Part shown: positions 3,869-29,903 of the stretch, one piece after another
How positions within the stretch are numbered: the stretch's first letter is position 1
How the letters are laid out: each line of letters opens with the position of its first letter
Assembly (NCBI GenBank): GCA_038237075.1
Contig: JBBRZC010000001.1
Location: forward strand, 2,959 to 66,958
Length of the DNA stretch: 64,000 bases
Direction: 5' to 3'
Source of the DNA: Actinomycetales bacterium
GTDB taxonomy: Bacteria > Actinomycetota > Actinomycetes > Actinomycetales > Dermatophilaceae
Translations under genes and position numbers: made by a program
Notes under the pieces: model-generated
What the model was told of the DNA's origin: nothing
Databases searched by the model: none
What the model saw: the letters and a program-made list of their open reading frames with translations, nothing else

Positions 3869-4932
3869 GCCTCGCCCCGCTCGCCCCGTGGCCGCTGCTC
3901 GTCGTCCTGGCGGGACTCGCCGCCCTGCTCGTCTGGTGGCCCGCCGGGCGACGAGAACGTGCCGAGTCCCTGACGGCCCGCGCTCGGCGCACGGCAATGG
4001 TCGGGGTGCTCCTCGTCGCGGCCCTGCGGCCCGGACTGCCCGGCACCGACGTCACCGTCGACGCGGCCGACCTCGACGTCTACTTCCTCGCCGACACGAC
4101 GACGTCGGTGATGGCGCAGGACTACGCGGGCACCCGCCCCCGGATCGAGGGGGTCCGGGCCGACCTCAAGGGGATCGCTGCGCAGCTGCCCGGCGCGCGC
4201 TACACCCTGCTCACCTTCGACCATCAGACGGTGACCCGACTGCCCCTGACGAGCGACGGGGCCGCACTCGCCGCAGCCGCCGACACGCTCGTCGCCGAGA
4301 CCTCCGCGTGGTCACAGGGCAGCAGTGTCACCGTGGCGAGGACGGCGCTGCGCGAGGCGCTGGAGCGGGGCCGCAAGGCCCACCCCGAGCGCGCCCGGCT
4401 CGTGTTCTACCTCGGTGACGGCGAGCAGACGGCGCCGGATCCCCCGGAGCCGTTCGACGTCGACGCCGCCCTCGTCAACGGCGGTGCCGTGCTCGGCTAC
4501 GGCACTGCGGAGGGGGGCGCCATGGAGCAGACCGGCACCCGGAGTGGTGGGCACGTGCTCGACCCGGCCACCGGCCAGCCGGCTCGCTCCGCCATCGACG
4601 AGCGGCAGCTCGGGGCGATCGCCGCGCAGCTCGCCCTGCCCTACCTTCACCGCACGAGCGACGACGGCGCGGCCGCCGTCGTGGACCGGGTCGGCCTCAA
4701 GGAGCTCGGGTCGCTGTCGAGCGGCGACTCGACCCGCAGCGTCGGCGGCAGGACGGAGCTGTCCTGGGTGCTCCTGCTCGCTCTCGTGCTGCTCGCTGCC
4801 TGGGAGCTCGGCGCCGCCGTTGCCGGCCTGTCCCCGGCCCGCCGACCCCGCACGACGCGCGCCGGCTCGAGCGGAGCGGCCGGCTCGAGCGGCGACCCGG
4901 TCCTGGCCCACTCGGAAGGACCCGCCCGATGA
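3865..4932 (+). CDS. VWA domain membrane protein (BatB-like)
   Basis: ATGA overlap at 3865; MIDAS-like ADTTTSV, FYLGDGE, GYGT..GG motif; TM helices. Confidence 0.85.
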   Translation: MSLAPLAPWPLLVVLAGLAALLVWWPAGRRERAESLTARARRTAMVGVLLVAALRPGLPGTDVTVDAADLDVYFLADTTTSVMAQDYAGTRPRIEGVRADLKGIAAQLPGARYTLLTFDHQTVTRLPLTSDGAALAAAADTLVAETSAWSQGSSVTVARTALREALERGRKAHPERARLVFYLGDGEQTAPDPPEPFDVDAALVNGGAVLGYGTAEGGAMEQTGTRSGGHVLDPATGQPARSAIDERQLGAIAAQLALPYLHRTSDDGAAAVVDRVGLKELGSLSSGDSTRSVGGRTELSWVLLLALVLLAAWELGAAVAGLSPARRPRTTRAGSSGAAGSSGDPVLAHSEGPAR

Positions 4933-5690
4933 GCACGCTGACCACCCAGCGGCCCCGGCCGAGCCCCTCGCATCTCCCCGGAAGGGCGGAGACCGAGCAG
5001 GCCAGAGCTGCGAGGCTGGCGTTGCGTCGCCGGCTCGTCGTCGGGTCGCTGCCCGGCGTCGCCGTGCTGCTCCTCGTCGCCCTCAAGCTCCTCACCATGG
5101 TCGCCGCCGGGGCAGCCGCCGGGAACGCGTATGCCGCGGGCAACATCACCGGCGTCGAGCAGGCCGCTGCACGGATGGGCTTCCTCAACATCATCGAGAG
5201 CTACAAGGCGCCGTTCGCCCGGGGCGACGGGCGCGTCCTGGTGGGCGACTTCGACGGTGCGCGGGCGGCATATGAGGAGGCGCTGGCGATGGCGCCCCGC
5301 GACGCCGTGGCCGCCTGCAAGATCCGGGTCAACCTCGTCCTCAGCCTCGAGAAGCTCGGCGACGCCGCAGGCTCCGCGTCGGGCGCGCCAGCGGCCAAAC
5401 CGTTTTTCGACCGGGTCCAGCAGGTCGTGGACGGAGCACCGAAGGGGTGTTTCCAGCCGCAGGCCGGCGACGCAGGCCAGCGGCTCACCGACGCCCGCTC
5501 CCGGGCCCAGGCGAAGAGCCAGCCGCAGCCGGGACCCCAGAGCCCGCCGGACCCGAACCAGCAGCCGGCCCCGAGCCAGGACAAGCAGCAGCAGCTGGAC
5601 GACAAGACGAAGGACAACCAGCAGCAGCGCTCGCAGTCTGAACAGAACCGTCCCGGGGGCTCACGGCCCCCGGCCGCGAAGCCCTGGTGA
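4929..5690 (+). CDS. TPR-like membrane-anchored protein with Gln/Pro-rich tail (BatC-like)
   Basis: ATGA overlap; TM segment; Ala-rich helical repeats (GDFDGARAAYEEAL); QPQPGPQ/QQQ tail ending KPW. Confidence 0.75.
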   Translation: MSTLTTQRPRPSPSHLPGRAETEQARAARLALRRRLVVGSLPGVAVLLLVALKLLTMVAAGAAAGNAYAAGNITGVEQAAARMGFLNIIESYKAPFARGDGRVLVGDFDGARAAYEEALAMAPRDAVAACKIRVNLVLSLEKLGDAAGSASGAPAAKPFFDRVQQVVDGAPKGCFQPQAGDAGQRLTDARSRAQAKSQPQPGPQSPPDPNQQPAPSQDKQQQLDDKTKDNQQQRSQSEQNRPGGSRPPAAKPW

Positions 5691-5858
5691 GCCGCTCACC
5701 TGTCGGCCGCGGTTCACAGGCCCTGCCTACGTCGGCGACAGCAGCATCGCAGCACGTGCCCGAGGGCGCGGGAGGCGGCGACCCCGCCTTCTGGGTACCG
5801 GGGCTGACGCCCACGTGGCGGGCCGCCGTCGGCTGAGCGCTGCACGGGGCCGCCCAGG

Positions 5859-5936
5859 GCCACCGATGGGCGCTGAGTCCATGGGATCCCATGGACTCAG
5901 CACGCATTACGTGGAGCGCTGTGACGGCTGTGGCGA
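5859..5936 (+). repeat. Dispersed palindromic (REP/MITE-like) element, copy 1
   Basis: Perfect 30-bp palindrome gctgagtccatgggatcccatggactcagc at 5872-5901; about 77% ungapped identity to the reverse complement of 29225-29302. Confidence 0.85.
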
Positions 5937-6084
5937 GTGTGGCCGCAGTGACGGCGGGAGCCGGAGGTTGGCCGTGCGCGGCGAGTGCCGCTTGACACCC
6001 AGGGACCTTGTTCTGGAACCGCCCCGCTTGAGGAGCACGGCATCCGGGGCGAGCGCCTAGGCGGAGAGAGGTCGGACCTAGTGT

Positions 6085-6100
6085 GGCTATACTTGTAGCC
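6085..6100 (+). promoter_or_regulatory. Leaderless -10 (TATACT 6088-6093) inside an inverted repeat; probable TA operator
   Basis: ggcta-tacttg-tagcc; -10 hexamer is 7 nt upstream of ATG 6101. Confidence 0.65.
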
Positions 6101-6382
6101 ATGGCCGTGAATCCGCAGATGGCGCTCAAGGACGTCAGGAACCACCTCTCGGAGGTCGTCGACCAGGTCGAGCGCCAGCACGACCGTGTCGTGATCACCA
6201 AGCACGGTCGACCGGCTGCCATCGTCATGAGCATCGACGACGTCGAGTCGCTGGAGGAGACTCTTGACGTCATGAGCAGCCCGCGGCTCGTCTCGCAGAT
6301 CCGCGACAGCTTGGCCGGCCTCGCCAACGACGACGCCGAGGTGCTGAGCAAGGACGAAGTCCTCGACCTGTTGCGTTCCTAG
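6101..6382 (+). CDS. Phd/YefM family antitoxin
   Basis: LKDVRNHLSEVVDQVERQHDRVVITKHGRPAAIVMS...LEETL pattern; small acidic protein upstream of a toxin gene. Confidence 0.92.
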   Translation: MAVNPQMALKDVRNHLSEVVDQVERQHDRVVITKHGRPAAIVMSIDDVESLEETLDVMSSPRLVSQIRDSLAGLANDDAEVLSKDEVLDLLRS

Positions 6383-6387
6383 CCGCG

Positions 6388-6654
6388 ATGGCCCATGACG
6401 TCGCCTGGTCACCCACGGCGAAGCGGGCCGTGCTCAGGCTGCCCGAGAAGGTCGCGACTGCGGTCGCAGAGCTCATCTACGGCCCGCTTGGCGACAACCC
6501 TCGACGCGTCGGCAAGGCCCTGAGGTTCGATCTGGAGGGCCTGCACAGCGCCCGCCGCGGCGACTTTCGCGTCATCTACCGCATCTCGGAAGGACCCGCT
6601 CGCGTCACTGTTGTCGCCATCGAGCACCGCGCCGACGCCTACCGTTCCCGGTGA
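6388..6654 (+). CDS. RelE/ParE family toxin
   Basis: 88 aa, basic; GKALRFDLEGLHSARRGDFRVIYRI...HRADAYR pattern; 5 bp after the antitoxin. Confidence 0.9.
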   Translation: MAHDVAWSPTAKRAVLRLPEKVATAVAELIYGPLGDNPRRVGKALRFDLEGLHSARRGDFRVIYRISEGPARVTVVAIEHRADAYRSR

Positions 6655-27955: not shown

Positions 27956-28363
27956 ATGAGCGACAGTCCGACCCAACGAGACAAGGCAACGGCCCGCAAA
28001 GGTGTGCTCGGGCGGCTCGCCGACCGGCTCATCAAGCCGGCGCACGAGCTGGAGGACCGTGAGCTCCAGGAGGACTCGCAGCGCGTCGGTGCGACGCCGA
28101 TCAACCGGCTGGCCAACCGCGAGCGGGCCGACGTCTGTGGTCTCGTCCGCTCGGTGACGCTGCGACCCCGCGTCGACGTGCCGGCCCTCGTCGTGGAGAT
28201 CTACGACGGCAGCCGGCCGTTGCACCTCGTGTGGCTCGGTCGCCGCGAGATCGTCGGCATCCAGCCGGGAGTGCAGCTGCGGGCGACCGGGCGGGTGTCC
28301 TACTACCGCGGCATACCGACGATCTTCAACCCCTTCTACGAGATCGTGCCGAAGAGTGGCTGA
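27956..28363 (+). CDS. OB-fold nucleic acid binding protein
   Basis: YDGS..L.LVWLGRREIVGIQPG...NPFYEI. Confidence 0.85.
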   Translation: MSDSPTQRDKATARKGVLGRLADRLIKPAHELEDRELQEDSQRVGATPINRLANRERADVCGLVRSVTLRPRVDVPALVVEIYDGSRPLHLVWLGRREIVGIQPGVQLRATGRVSYYRGIPTIFNPFYEIVPKSG

Positions 28364-29135
28364 GCCGGTGGTCGACCCGGCCCGCTCGCTGCCGCCGGTC
28401 TTCGTCACCGTCGAGGAGCTGCTCCGGGCCCGGCTCGGCGCGGCGCTCGGAGGCTGGCGCGGGGCGCTGGAGTCGGCTCTGCCCACGGTGGCGTTCGTCG
28501 CGGCGTGGACGAGCACTCACGAGGTGCGCCCCGCCGTGGGTGCGGCGGTCGTGGCGCTGGTGCTGCTCGCCGGCCTGCGGCTGGCTCGCCGCCAGACGCT
28601 GCGGTTCATCGCGTATGCCGCGTTCGGCGTCGCCGTCGCGGCGTTCTTCGCCCTGCGCTCGGGTCGGGCCGAGGACGCGTTCCTGCCGGGGATGATCCAG
28701 ACCGCGGCCTTCGGGCTCGCGATGCTCGTGGCGAACCTCGTGCGGTGGCCGCTCTTCGGCTTCCTCCTCGGCGCCGGCGACCCCGAGCTCGTCGCGGCGT
28801 CCGAGCGGCTGCGGCAGAGCTCGCGCAAGGACGCCCCGACGGACCCGGACTCCGTGGCCCGCGCGGCGGCCGACGAGGCCGCCGTCAAGGAGGCGTTCAC
28901 CGGGTGGCGCCGCCACGCCGGGATCGTCGCAGTCGCGAGCCGGCTGGGCTGGGTCATCGTGGTCCTCGACGCCATCCGGCTGCTCGTCATGGTGCCGCTC
29001 TACCTTGCCGGCCAGGTCAGCGCCCTCGGAGTGGCCAAGATCCTCCTCGGCTGGCCCGCCTACGTCGTGGCCGTCCTCGTCATGGGTCTGCTCCTCGTGC
29101 GCGGCCATACCCCGCTGGACGAGCCCCGCTCCTGA
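28356..29135 (+). CDS. DUF3159 family membrane protein
   Basis: LGGWRGALES, AEDAFLPG, RWPLFG, AKILLGWP; several TM helices. Confidence 0.88.
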   Translation: MAEPVVDPARSLPPVFVTVEELLRARLGAALGGWRGALESALPTVAFVAAWTSTHEVRPAVGAAVVALVLLAGLRLARRQTLRFIAYAAFGVAVAAFFALRSGRAEDAFLPGMIQTAAFGLAMLVANLVRWPLFGFLLGAGDPELVAASERLRQSSRKDAPTDPDSVARAAADEAAVKEAFTGWRRHAGIVAVASRLGWVIVVLDAIRLLVMVPLYLAGQVSALGVAKILLGWPAYVVAVLVMGLLLVRGHTPLDEPRS

Positions 29136-29224
29136 GCCGGACCTCGCGACCCCGTGCACGGCATACCGAGCACCCCGGCCCGGCGCGGCCCCGGGGCGAG
29201 TTTCCGGAGCACCTTCGGCCCCGT

Positions 29225-29302
29225 TCGTCACTGTGGCACCAGCGCTCCGCGAAATGCGCACGCAGTCCATGGGATCCCATGGACTGCGCGCTCAACCGTG
29301 GC
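29225..29302 (-). repeat. Dispersed palindromic (REP/MITE-like) element, copy 2
   Basis: Perfect 28-bp palindrome cgcagtccatgggatcccatggactgcg at 29261-29288; inverted homolog of 5859-5936. Confidence 0.85.
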
Positions 29303-29377
29303 GTTGCACCGGGGTCGGGCGCACTCAAGGCAGGCCGCAGCGTCAGCGGGGCTCGCGCCGCGTGCTGAGGGTGGCAC

Positions 29378-29893
29378 TCAGCAGTCGAACACCGACCAGC
29401 AGATGTCGTTCCGCATTCGCTGGTCGTCGAGGACGAGCTCGCGAACCGCGTCCGGGAGCCGGTCACGCTGCCACTGGCACTCGGGTCGTCCGGCGGCCAC
29501 GCCATCGCCGTCGGACGCGGCAGCGCCGACGGCCTTGATCGCATAGGCCGCCGCGCCGAGCTCGTGCGCGGCGACGTGGCCGACGCAGGCGGCCTGACCC
29601 GCGGCGTACGCGGCATACCGTGCTGGCCCGCGCAGGTCCCTGGCCGCGCCCATGGCATGGCCGCCGGCTGCGCGGGCCCGCATCATGGTGACCTCGCCGC
29701 GCACCCAGGCGCGGGCGTGCTCGATCGCCTGCCGCGGTCGTGGGTCCTCGGGCCGAGTCACCTCGAAGAGGTCGAGGACGTGCTCCGCGCAGGAGGCCGC
29801 CCACAGCGCGAGGAGCTGGTGGTCCGAGTCGGTGAGGGTCCCACCCCGGCGGATCGTGACCAAGCGCGGGTCCCGGACCTTGGAGAGGATCAT
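29378..29893 (-). CDS. Putative immunity protein (Imm5-like family)
   Basis: LALWAASCAEHVL, DPRPRQAIE, AAYAAGQA...HVAAHELGAAAYA pattern, recognised from memory of the family. Confidence 0.75.
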   Translation of the reverse strand: MILSKVRDPRLVTIRRGGTLTDSDHQLLALWAASCAEHVLDLFEVTRPEDPRPRQAIEHARAWVRGEVTMMRARAAGGHAMGAARDLRGPARYAAYAAGQAACVGHVAAHELGAAAYAIKAVGAAASDGDGVAAGRPECQWQRDRLPDAVRELVLDDQRMRNDICWSVFDC

Positions 29894-29903
29894 GGCCGGC
29901 ACC

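Follow-up and report, generated by a model that had tools for sequence, protein, structure and literature searches.

The DNA analysed here is a stretch of 64,000 nucleotides (the window; C1:2959-66958) from a metagenome-assembled genome (MAG) of an Actinomycetales bacterium (G000; 3.42 Mb, 72% G+C, 247 contigs, 99.3% complete). It carries two copies of a palindromic element, a dispersed repeat of non-coding DNA that measures ~96 bp (~190 bp in its long form) and is present in ~55 copies in the MAG. Positions given without a contig are those of the window; C denotes contigs of G000, L denotes loci, and other G labels (G001, G012 etc.) denote comparison genomes of the genus or order. Copy 1, a short form of ~100 bp, occupies 5854-5955 on the plus strand (C1:8812-8913 by covariance model R1, 79.3 bits; 62.1 bits by nhmmer), and copy 2 occupies 29206-29307 on the minus strand (C1:32164-32265 by R1, 82.8 bits). 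In an ungapped alignment of 5859-5936 (plus strand) with 29225-29302 in reverse complement, exactly 60 of the 78 columns were identical, the figure given in a first-pass annotation of the window, and the 22-bp core AGTCCATGGGATCCCATGGACT reported there was recovered in both copies, at 5876-5897 and 29264-29285; this 22-mer had 0 matches in 100 dinucleotide shuffles of the window, even with 3 mismatches allowed. The same annotation had described perfect palindromes around the core, and these were read from the sequence as uninterrupted over 30 bp in copy 1 (5872-5901, centred between GGGA and TCCC at 5886/5887) and over 28 bp in copy 2 (29261-29288). The bases adjoining the core were likewise confirmed to be unlike between the copies yet paired within each (CTG..CAG in copy 1, CGC..GCG in copy 2). 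The one-sided tail was found to reach further than had been stated: in copy 1 it spans 5915-5952 (plus strand) with four GTGRC boxes in 9-bp phase (GTGAC at 5921-5925, GTGGC at 5930-5934, GTGGC at 5939-5943 and GTGAC at 5948-5952). Copy 2 has an additional 3' extension at 29166-29205 (minus strand; GACGAACGGGGCCGAAGGTGCTCCGG...), which makes it a long form of ~190 bp, in common with the copy at C23:8321 and two copies in L016.

All genes next to the two copies lie outside the element. Upstream of copy 1 is a conserved gene at 4929-5690 (plus strand; called from G+C content at third codon positions, GC3) that has no Pfam match; its 3' part is kept in 26 of 27 sister genomes and the DNA past its stop codon is not conserved, and no empty site for copy 1 could be aligned in the sister genomes, the DNA beyond the upstream gene being unconserved. 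Downstream of copy 1, on the plus strand, are genes for a Phd/YefM antitoxin (6083-6382; PF02604, 6e-20) and a ParE toxin (6388-6654; PF05016, 9e-9); this pair (6083-6654) is accessory, matched in just one of 27 sister genomes and there on a different contig. Copy 2 is flanked by a DUF3159 gene (28356-29135, plus strand; PF11361, 5.6e-46) and an Imm5-like gene (29378-29902, minus strand; PF21805, 1.2e-40), both convergent with the element. A record look-up for contigs encoding the two flanking proteins returned nothing, and the homologues of one neighbouring protein carried the source names Dermatophilaceae, Lapillicoccus and Phycicoccus.

Across G000 the core pattern gave 49 matches at no more than 3-4 mismatches (0 for the reversed control pattern), and iterated nhmmer together with the covariance model gave ~55 loci. 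Two more copies were added by contig JBBRZQ010000271.1 ('MAG: Actinomycetales bacterium isolate metawrap_la5_58'), which overlaps the end of C185 with 100% identity and is therefore part of the same MAG. With these numbers the dispersed repeat family proposed from the window is borne out, and the possibility that only the two window copies exist falls. The family consensus is GnCACCGATGAGCGCCG-AGTCCATGGGATCCCATGGACT-CGGCGCTCATCGGTGG-AGCGCTGGTGCCnGAGTGACCGGTGTGACC, with a sharp onset of conservation at about -30 from the centre and a fading at about +66 on the right. It comprises an invariant 22-bp apex, then 2-4 variable complementary pairs, conserved outer arms (TGAGCGC/GCGCTCA and CCACCG/CGGTGG) and the one-sided tail, in which GTGRC boxes stand family-wide at +34, +43, +52 and +61 from the centre (9-bp phase). 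GTGRC arrays are specific to the element: 15 of the 23 triple arrays in the genome adjoin a copy. Two tail subfamilies, GGAGCG.. (36 copies) and GGACTC.. (12 copies), were distinguished. The core is free of mismatches in 18 copies and has 1, 2 or 3 in 13, 11 and 5 copies, respectively, and 19 of the 49 copies contain uninterrupted palindromes of 22-46 bp. For the long form, BLAST of L016 against C1:32124-32280 and C23:8263-8476 gave matches of 81-86% over 140-195 bp.

Local clusters in direct orientation occur in C224, C110, C183, C206 and L016. The one at C224:975-1480 is a tandem array of four copies at 127-bp spacing, with spacers unrelated to each other, and its copies 1 and 3 are short of 10-14 bp at the palindrome centre (AGTCC-CTGA-ACT; AGTCCCGTGGAC); long DNA palindromes, being unstable, are prone to such loss of the centre. 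Several assembly ends lie at or overlap element copies (C77:16011-16197 with C100:13159-13196; the end of C185 with L016:3870-4010). The palindromes seem to fragment the assembly, part of the contig breakage in G000 being due to such splits (C77/C100, C185/L016), and the real copy number is probably above 55. An octamer, GGTATGCC/GGCATACC, was also noted, with 681 + 678 occurrences in 3.4 Mb (roughly 12 times the composition-based estimate), for example at 29141-29148 beside copy 2 and inside the repeat that brackets a DUF559-family gene on C214. As a candidate part of the element GGCATACC was rejected: it is frequent near copies, but its ~1,360 occurrences genome-wide are independent of the element. 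Another sequence, GTATGCCG, occurs about 1,290 times per strand.

Base pairing was evaluated in the alignment of 49 copies. In a helix of 25 pairs, 80.8% of cells were paired as against 30-42% in slid controls, and none of 500 shuffles and no slid control attained the observed covariation score. The compensatory changes claimed from the two window copies recur genome-wide in this alignment as pairing-preserving double changes, which cluster at pairs 20:47, 21:46 and 22:45 (6, 14 and 15 cells), just beyond the core; the pair types include CG, GC, UA and others, with at least 5 types at 21:46 and 22:45. Selection for a hairpin on every copy, as had also been suggested, is not upheld: departures inside the 22-bp core are nearly all unpaired, and compensation is limited to 2-4 flanking base pairs and tracks the subfamilies, the variable stem bases being concordant with the tail subfamily in 31 copies and discordant in 5. 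G.T pairs were no commoner than A.C (62 versus 51, p=0.35). A strong fold is predicted (-88 kcal/mol over 151 nt, z = -4), and the two strands fold equally well. As core changes are uncompensated and G.T pairs do not exceed A.C, the symmetry is likely to be a property of the DNA, not of an RNA; it so fits the site of a dimeric protein, or a hairpin or cruciform on either strand, not a strand-specific RNA. The compensation looks like a symmetry that is present when a copy arises, or in a handful of masters, and is then eroded by neutral decay.

The copies are intergenic in G000. Their placement was scored with home-made, crude GC3-based gene calls that cover 75% of the genome, so the placement numbers are approximate. 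Spacers between convergent genes hold 16 of 46 copies against a background of 18% (p=0.006), and divergent spacers, with 10 of 46 against 17%, are not enriched. The neighbours are ordinary genes of unrelated function (ribH/hisE, guaA, murT/gatD). At C46:7980-8080 (L017) the element stands between ribH and hisE, which directly abut in G022, G001 and G005; the insertion in G000 has replaced the last ~20 codons of ribH and supplies its TGA stop from within the left end of the element (GTGTGACAG), while ribH extends to the start of hisE in the sister genomes.

In 24 sister genomes and 16 other families the core pattern was not found. The covariance model was run on 28 genus genomes and gave ~52 loci in G000, at least 3 in G012, at least 2 in each of G018 and G041 and at least 1 in G013, the numbers for sister genomes being lower bounds; G042 gave a further match that was weak and divergent, and the match in G005 was false, leaving clear copies in just five of the 28 genomes. 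The element was absent from 200 genomes representing 80 genera of the order. An exact 20-mer had no match in the JGI metagenomes, and its sole further match in public genome contigs was one contig of the same MAG. Copies in sister genomes retain the architecture and the GGGATCCC centre, with stems that differ by compensated changes, and the core itself changed between species via compensated steps (AGTCCAT..ATGGACT in G000 versus ACTCAAC..GTGGAGT and GCTCGAC..GTCGAGC in sisters). The element is thus almost certainly a dispersed repeat family that underwent a lineage-specific burst in G000, and it behaves like a non-autonomous element, a possibility that the first-pass annotation had considered.

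One copy, at C191:4578-4662 (plus strand), has the 3' end of guaA on one side and a gene at C191:3547-4461 (minus strand) on the other. The order guaA, element, DUF559 gene is common to five species (G000, G012, G013, G018 and G041), which makes this the oldest recognisable copy; a DUF559 gene had been among the linked genes proposed for a search, and it is beside this syntenic copy that one was found. The same spacer is without the element in G011, G019 and a G007 paralogue. A second copy, at C191:3416-3500 (minus strand), follows 47 bp past the stop codon of the DUF559 gene and is inverted with respect to the upstream copy, which is 117 bp away. The gene, which is single-copy, is in this way bracketed by two inverted copies with their tails outward, one of each tail subfamily. 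Two direct DnaA-box-like motifs, (C)TGTGGAC, ~30 bp apart, were observed between the palindrome and the start codon of the DUF559-family gene, both at C191:4470-4560 and in the homologous spacers of many sister genomes (L083-L089, L107, L109).

The C191 protein, of 305 residues, scored 22.9 bits with Pfam DUF559 (cut-off 20.6) and below the cut-off with AbiEi_4. A search of the PDB by sequence returned nothing for it, and matches were obtained by a fold search with an AlphaFold model (pLDDT 94, pTM 0.90): the first ~200 residues matched the whole AbiEi antitoxin 6y8q (E 9e-6), and the C-terminus matched the catalytic domain of I-Bth0305I (3r3p; TM 0.70 over the target), Vsr (1vsr) and the DUF559 protein 3hrl. 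The nuclease-motif residues D237, E248, D250 and K254 show little or no variation among 26 homologues. On this model the gene is predicted to encode a fusion of an AbiEi-like winged-helix DNA-binding module with a PD-(D/E)XK nuclease like Vsr and I-Bth0305I (DUF559). AbiEi proteins bind inverted repeats ahead of their own genes and thereby autoregulate (PMC7319586).

Bracketing was then examined across the gene family by comparing the 450 bp upstream with the 450 bp downstream of each homologue. Paired repeats were present at 24 of 29 loci from different genera of the order, at 10 of 27 loci in the genus, at 8 of 9 mutually diverged paralogues in G081 and at a second, distant paralogue in G000 (on C214), and at 2 of 400 random G000 genes of similar length. 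They are 17-192 bp long with 83-100% identity, usually form hairpins, occur in either orientation and have a sequence of their own for each gene; several of them (in G016, G043, G006, G005, G010 and G009) are scattered families in their own genomes. Judged by these sequence comparisons, bracketing is a property of the DUF559 gene family. In the literature searched on DUF559 with repeats and on REP/RAYT systems (repetitive extragenic palindromes, REP, and REP-associated tyrosine transposases, RAYT) in Actinobacteria, no description of such a repeat-nuclease pairing was found.

Other hairpin repeats of the genus were recorded alongside. At least six further unrelated families are scattered in its genomes (G016, G043, G006, G005, G001, G021, G010, G009 and G042), with at least 25 loci of CCCCTTTATCGGGTCACCCGATAAAGGGG in G043 and at least 18 of CCGGACATTATCGGG-nnn-CCCGATAATGTCCGG in G016, and for each of these families there is at least one genome where it brackets a DUF559-family gene. 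G081, a 2.4-Mb genome from another family of the order, has ~10 mutually diverged DUF559-family paralogues; of the nine loci examined there (L142-L150), the eight bracketed ones each have their own repeat of 17-125 bp, two of which are 100% identical over 37 and 61 bp.

We read the scattered element as the dispersed form of the palindrome that brackets the C191 gene, and on balance a REP/RAYT-like partnership of the repeat with this DUF559 gene, through which the element is to be understood, is given somewhat better than even chances. The copy beside the C191 gene is the likely master, because its locus is common to five species and all G000 copies carry the G000 core variant; the core would have diverged through compensated steps at the guaA locus once the lineage had separated from the G012 group, and the burst would have come later. 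In the mechanism envisaged, a protein dimer would recognise both half-sites of the palindrome, in the way that AbiEi reads inverted repeats, and the nuclease domain would nick or cut there. Repair from another copy as template would keep the symmetry and would occasionally seed a new copy elsewhere. New copies would start symmetric, persist mainly where they are harmless (at the 3' ends of genes) and decay through single uncompensated substitutions. Copying driven by the nuclease in this manner is put forward tentatively, at less than even chances.

Several observations weigh against the partnership with the DUF559 gene. The evidence for it consists of position and recurrence in sequence. Within the genus only 10 of 27 loci have paired repeats, and the control genes of the bracket test were drawn from a single genome (G000). 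G021, which has the closest orthologue (68% identity), has no palindrome beside the gene and no copy in the genome. The orthologues of G012 and G041 are intact, yet these genomes hold only 2-3 copies (lower bounds), so an intact gene is insufficient for a burst. The target duplications that had been suggested for comparison did not emerge, and the 49 copies show neither a consistent flanking direct repeat nor a fixed target; an apparent duplication of 13-17 bp at the ribH-hisE copy is GC-rich, is not reproduced at other copies and was discarded. In tandem contexts transcription meets the palindrome before the tail in 16 of 20 copies (16 versus 4, p=0.012, on the crude gene calls), a co-orientation that a purely DNA-level model does not predict. 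Selection after insertion is a speculative explanation of the bias, as the reverse orientation would place a C-rich, G-poor stretch in the transcript.

The best-surviving alternative is an orphan REP- or MITE-like repeat (MITE, miniature inverted-repeat transposable element) that was spread by another, unseen or lost enzyme, by recombination or by replication slippage, with the DUF559 gene merely a favoured neighbour or one that tends to settle next to or between such palindromes. The MAG is in 247 contigs, and mobile genes are often absent from MAGs; the local clusters in direct orientation (four copies at 127-bp spacing in C224 etc.) are duplication that calls for no special gene, and the nearest orthologue, in G021, is 'naked'. 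REP hairpins are known targets of insertion sequence (IS) elements (PMC1525189). Set against this are the recurrence of the bracket with different repeats at diverged paralogues (24/29 and 8/9 against 2/400), for which a chance neighbourhood is hard to invoke, and the finding of neither a Y1 transposase nor a multi-copy transposase-like gene in G000. Self-BLAST of G000 for a full-length parent IS revealed no multi-copy transposase-like unit, an absence that is not proof in a fragmented MAG, and the long repeats it returned were paralogous ordinary genes. We consider the orphan repeat unlikely, though it is the rival to be taken most seriously. The sole clearly multi-copy gene in the self-comparison was a DUF222/HNH-like gene ('13E12 repeat' type; family assigned by reading the sequence) with at least 3 copies, 87-90% identical, at contig ends (C205:3800-5555, C27:1-729 and C234:1-813), which is unlinked to the element.

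An element acting at the RNA level, as a factor-independent terminator, a stabiliser of mRNA 3' ends or a small RNA selected for its structure, would suit the enrichment between convergent genes (16/46 against 18%), the co-orientation of 16 of 20 tandem copies, the strong fold and the copies that occupy the entire spacer between co-directional genes, as between ribH and hisE. It would be expected to show other marks than those found. The hairpin is followed by no U-tract or T-run, the right arm continuing into GGAGCGCTGGTG, as is not the case in an intrinsic terminator; an Rfam 15 scan of the region gave best matches of 20 bits against thresholds of 44-197; G.T pairs do not exceed A.C; and both strands fold equally, with uncompensated core changes and an apex that is conserved in sequence, not in pairing alone. 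A role in RNA is therefore an improbable reason for the family, and any RNA-level effects may well be a secondary consequence of the copies.

Less probable again is a regulon, in which a dimeric transcription factor, possibly the AbiEi-like protein in the role of a mere repressor, would use the palindromes as operators and they would not be mobile DNA. Sites of dimeric repressors are typically perfect palindromes conserved in sequence, like the 22-bp one here, the DUF559 gene has a copy 117 bp upstream, and AbiEi autoregulation operates through inverted repeats (PMC7319586); the sites, however, are mostly at gene 3' ends and not enriched in divergent (promoter) spacers, number ~55 in one species against 1-3 (lower bounds) in sisters beside functionally unrelated neighbours, and include tandem arrays and copies with centre deletions, with ~70 bp of extra conserved sequence per copy. 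An attachment or recombination site for the entry of small toxin-antitoxin islets, close to the integration hotspot that had been proposed, was suggested by the accessory genes adjoining both window copies (Phd/ParE, absent at this locus in sisters, and Imm5-like) but has very little chance of being correct, since it fails genome-wide: the other Phd, ParE and Imm5 paralogues of G000 are without a copy on their contigs, and the copies inspected elsewhere sit mostly amid housekeeping genes (ribH/hisE, guaA, murT/gatD).

A classical REP/REPIN system with a RAYT, or an IS200/IS605-derived one (an HUH Y1 enzyme on single-strand hairpins), is favoured by a hairpin with an asymmetric flank in many extragenic copies with no target duplication, and is largely refuted by the absence of the linked TnpA(Y1)/RAYT gene that had been proposed for a search (PF01797 has no match in the 99.3%-complete G000, while 6 of 14 control genomes score), by a conserved block at the apex and by the lack of a GTAG or CGTC tag at the palindrome foot in the 49-copy consensus, where the arms end CCACCG/CGGTGG; it is the least credible of the alternatives. 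In REP sequences one palindrome end is expected to carry a conserved tetranucleotide, GTAG or CGTC (PMC3733652).

With the partnership of repeat and DUF559 gene as the preferred reading, a wider proposal can be made, and it is offered with reserve. Nucleases that join an AbiEi-like winged helix-turn-helix (wHTH) domain to a Vsr-like (DUF559) domain might be the dedicated enzymes of a second, independently evolved REP/RAYT-like class in Actinomycetota, each cutting, symmetrising and spreading its own bracket palindrome. If this is true, the MAG is a live case, with one intact gene and ~55 copies of its own compensated core variant, where sisters with the orthologous locus have 1-3 (lower bounds); it is this sharp contrast at a shared ancestral locus that makes G000 useful. 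Dispersed palindromes are common, and to our knowledge the enzyme behind them is known in one case only, REP/RAYT. The proposal would give a function to a very large, so far unexplained actinobacterial family, whose members are annotated as 'AbiEi antitoxin domain' or as 'very short patch repair endonuclease', would account for one class of the intergenic repeats of high-GC genomes and would add a non-HUH route of repeat proliferation. Visible effects of the element are the replaced C-terminus and stop of RibH and the broken assemblies.

Compared with known systems, the element resembles MITEs (Correia/NEMIS) in being a small non-coding intergenic repeat that is sometimes co-transcribed and can supply a stop codon (here to ribH); unlike them it has no MITE-type terminal inverted repeats, target-site duplication or DDE parent, and its tail is on one side only. 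The linked protein shares with Vsr and I-Bth0305I (1vsr, 3r3p; DUF559, PF04480) its predicted C-terminal fold and the conserved acidic and lysine residues. I-Bth0305I illustrates that selfish DNA copying can be driven by a Vsr-like fold that cuts a long target; in contrast to its gene, the linked gene is not in an intron or intein and stands between two whole palindromes instead of splitting one target, and the T/G-mismatch role of Vsr is not implied. With AbiEi, which binds inverted repeats before its own gene, the protein has in common the predicted fold of its N-terminal ~200 residues, and it departs from the AbiEi system in having a C-terminal nuclease domain, a repeat that stands on both sides of the gene and is scattered in ~55 copies, and no AbiEii (DUF1814) toxin partner. 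REP sequences or REPINs and their RAYT genes form 'REPtrons' (PMC3116915; bioRxiv 10.1101/119735; PMC3479197). From these the present system differs in its enzyme (AbiEi-like wHTH plus Vsr-like PD-(D/E)XK, not HUH Y1), in a much longer and uninterrupted palindrome (up to 46 bp, with no loop spacer) whose invariant block is at the apex and not at the foot, and in a one-sided tail of 9-bp phased boxes with no GTAG/CGTC tag. It is like them in its extragenic hairpin repeats in tens of copies, its lineage bursts and its lack of target duplication, and in a single-copy, vertically inherited gene with its own repeats on both sides, the repeat sequence differing from one gene lineage to the next.

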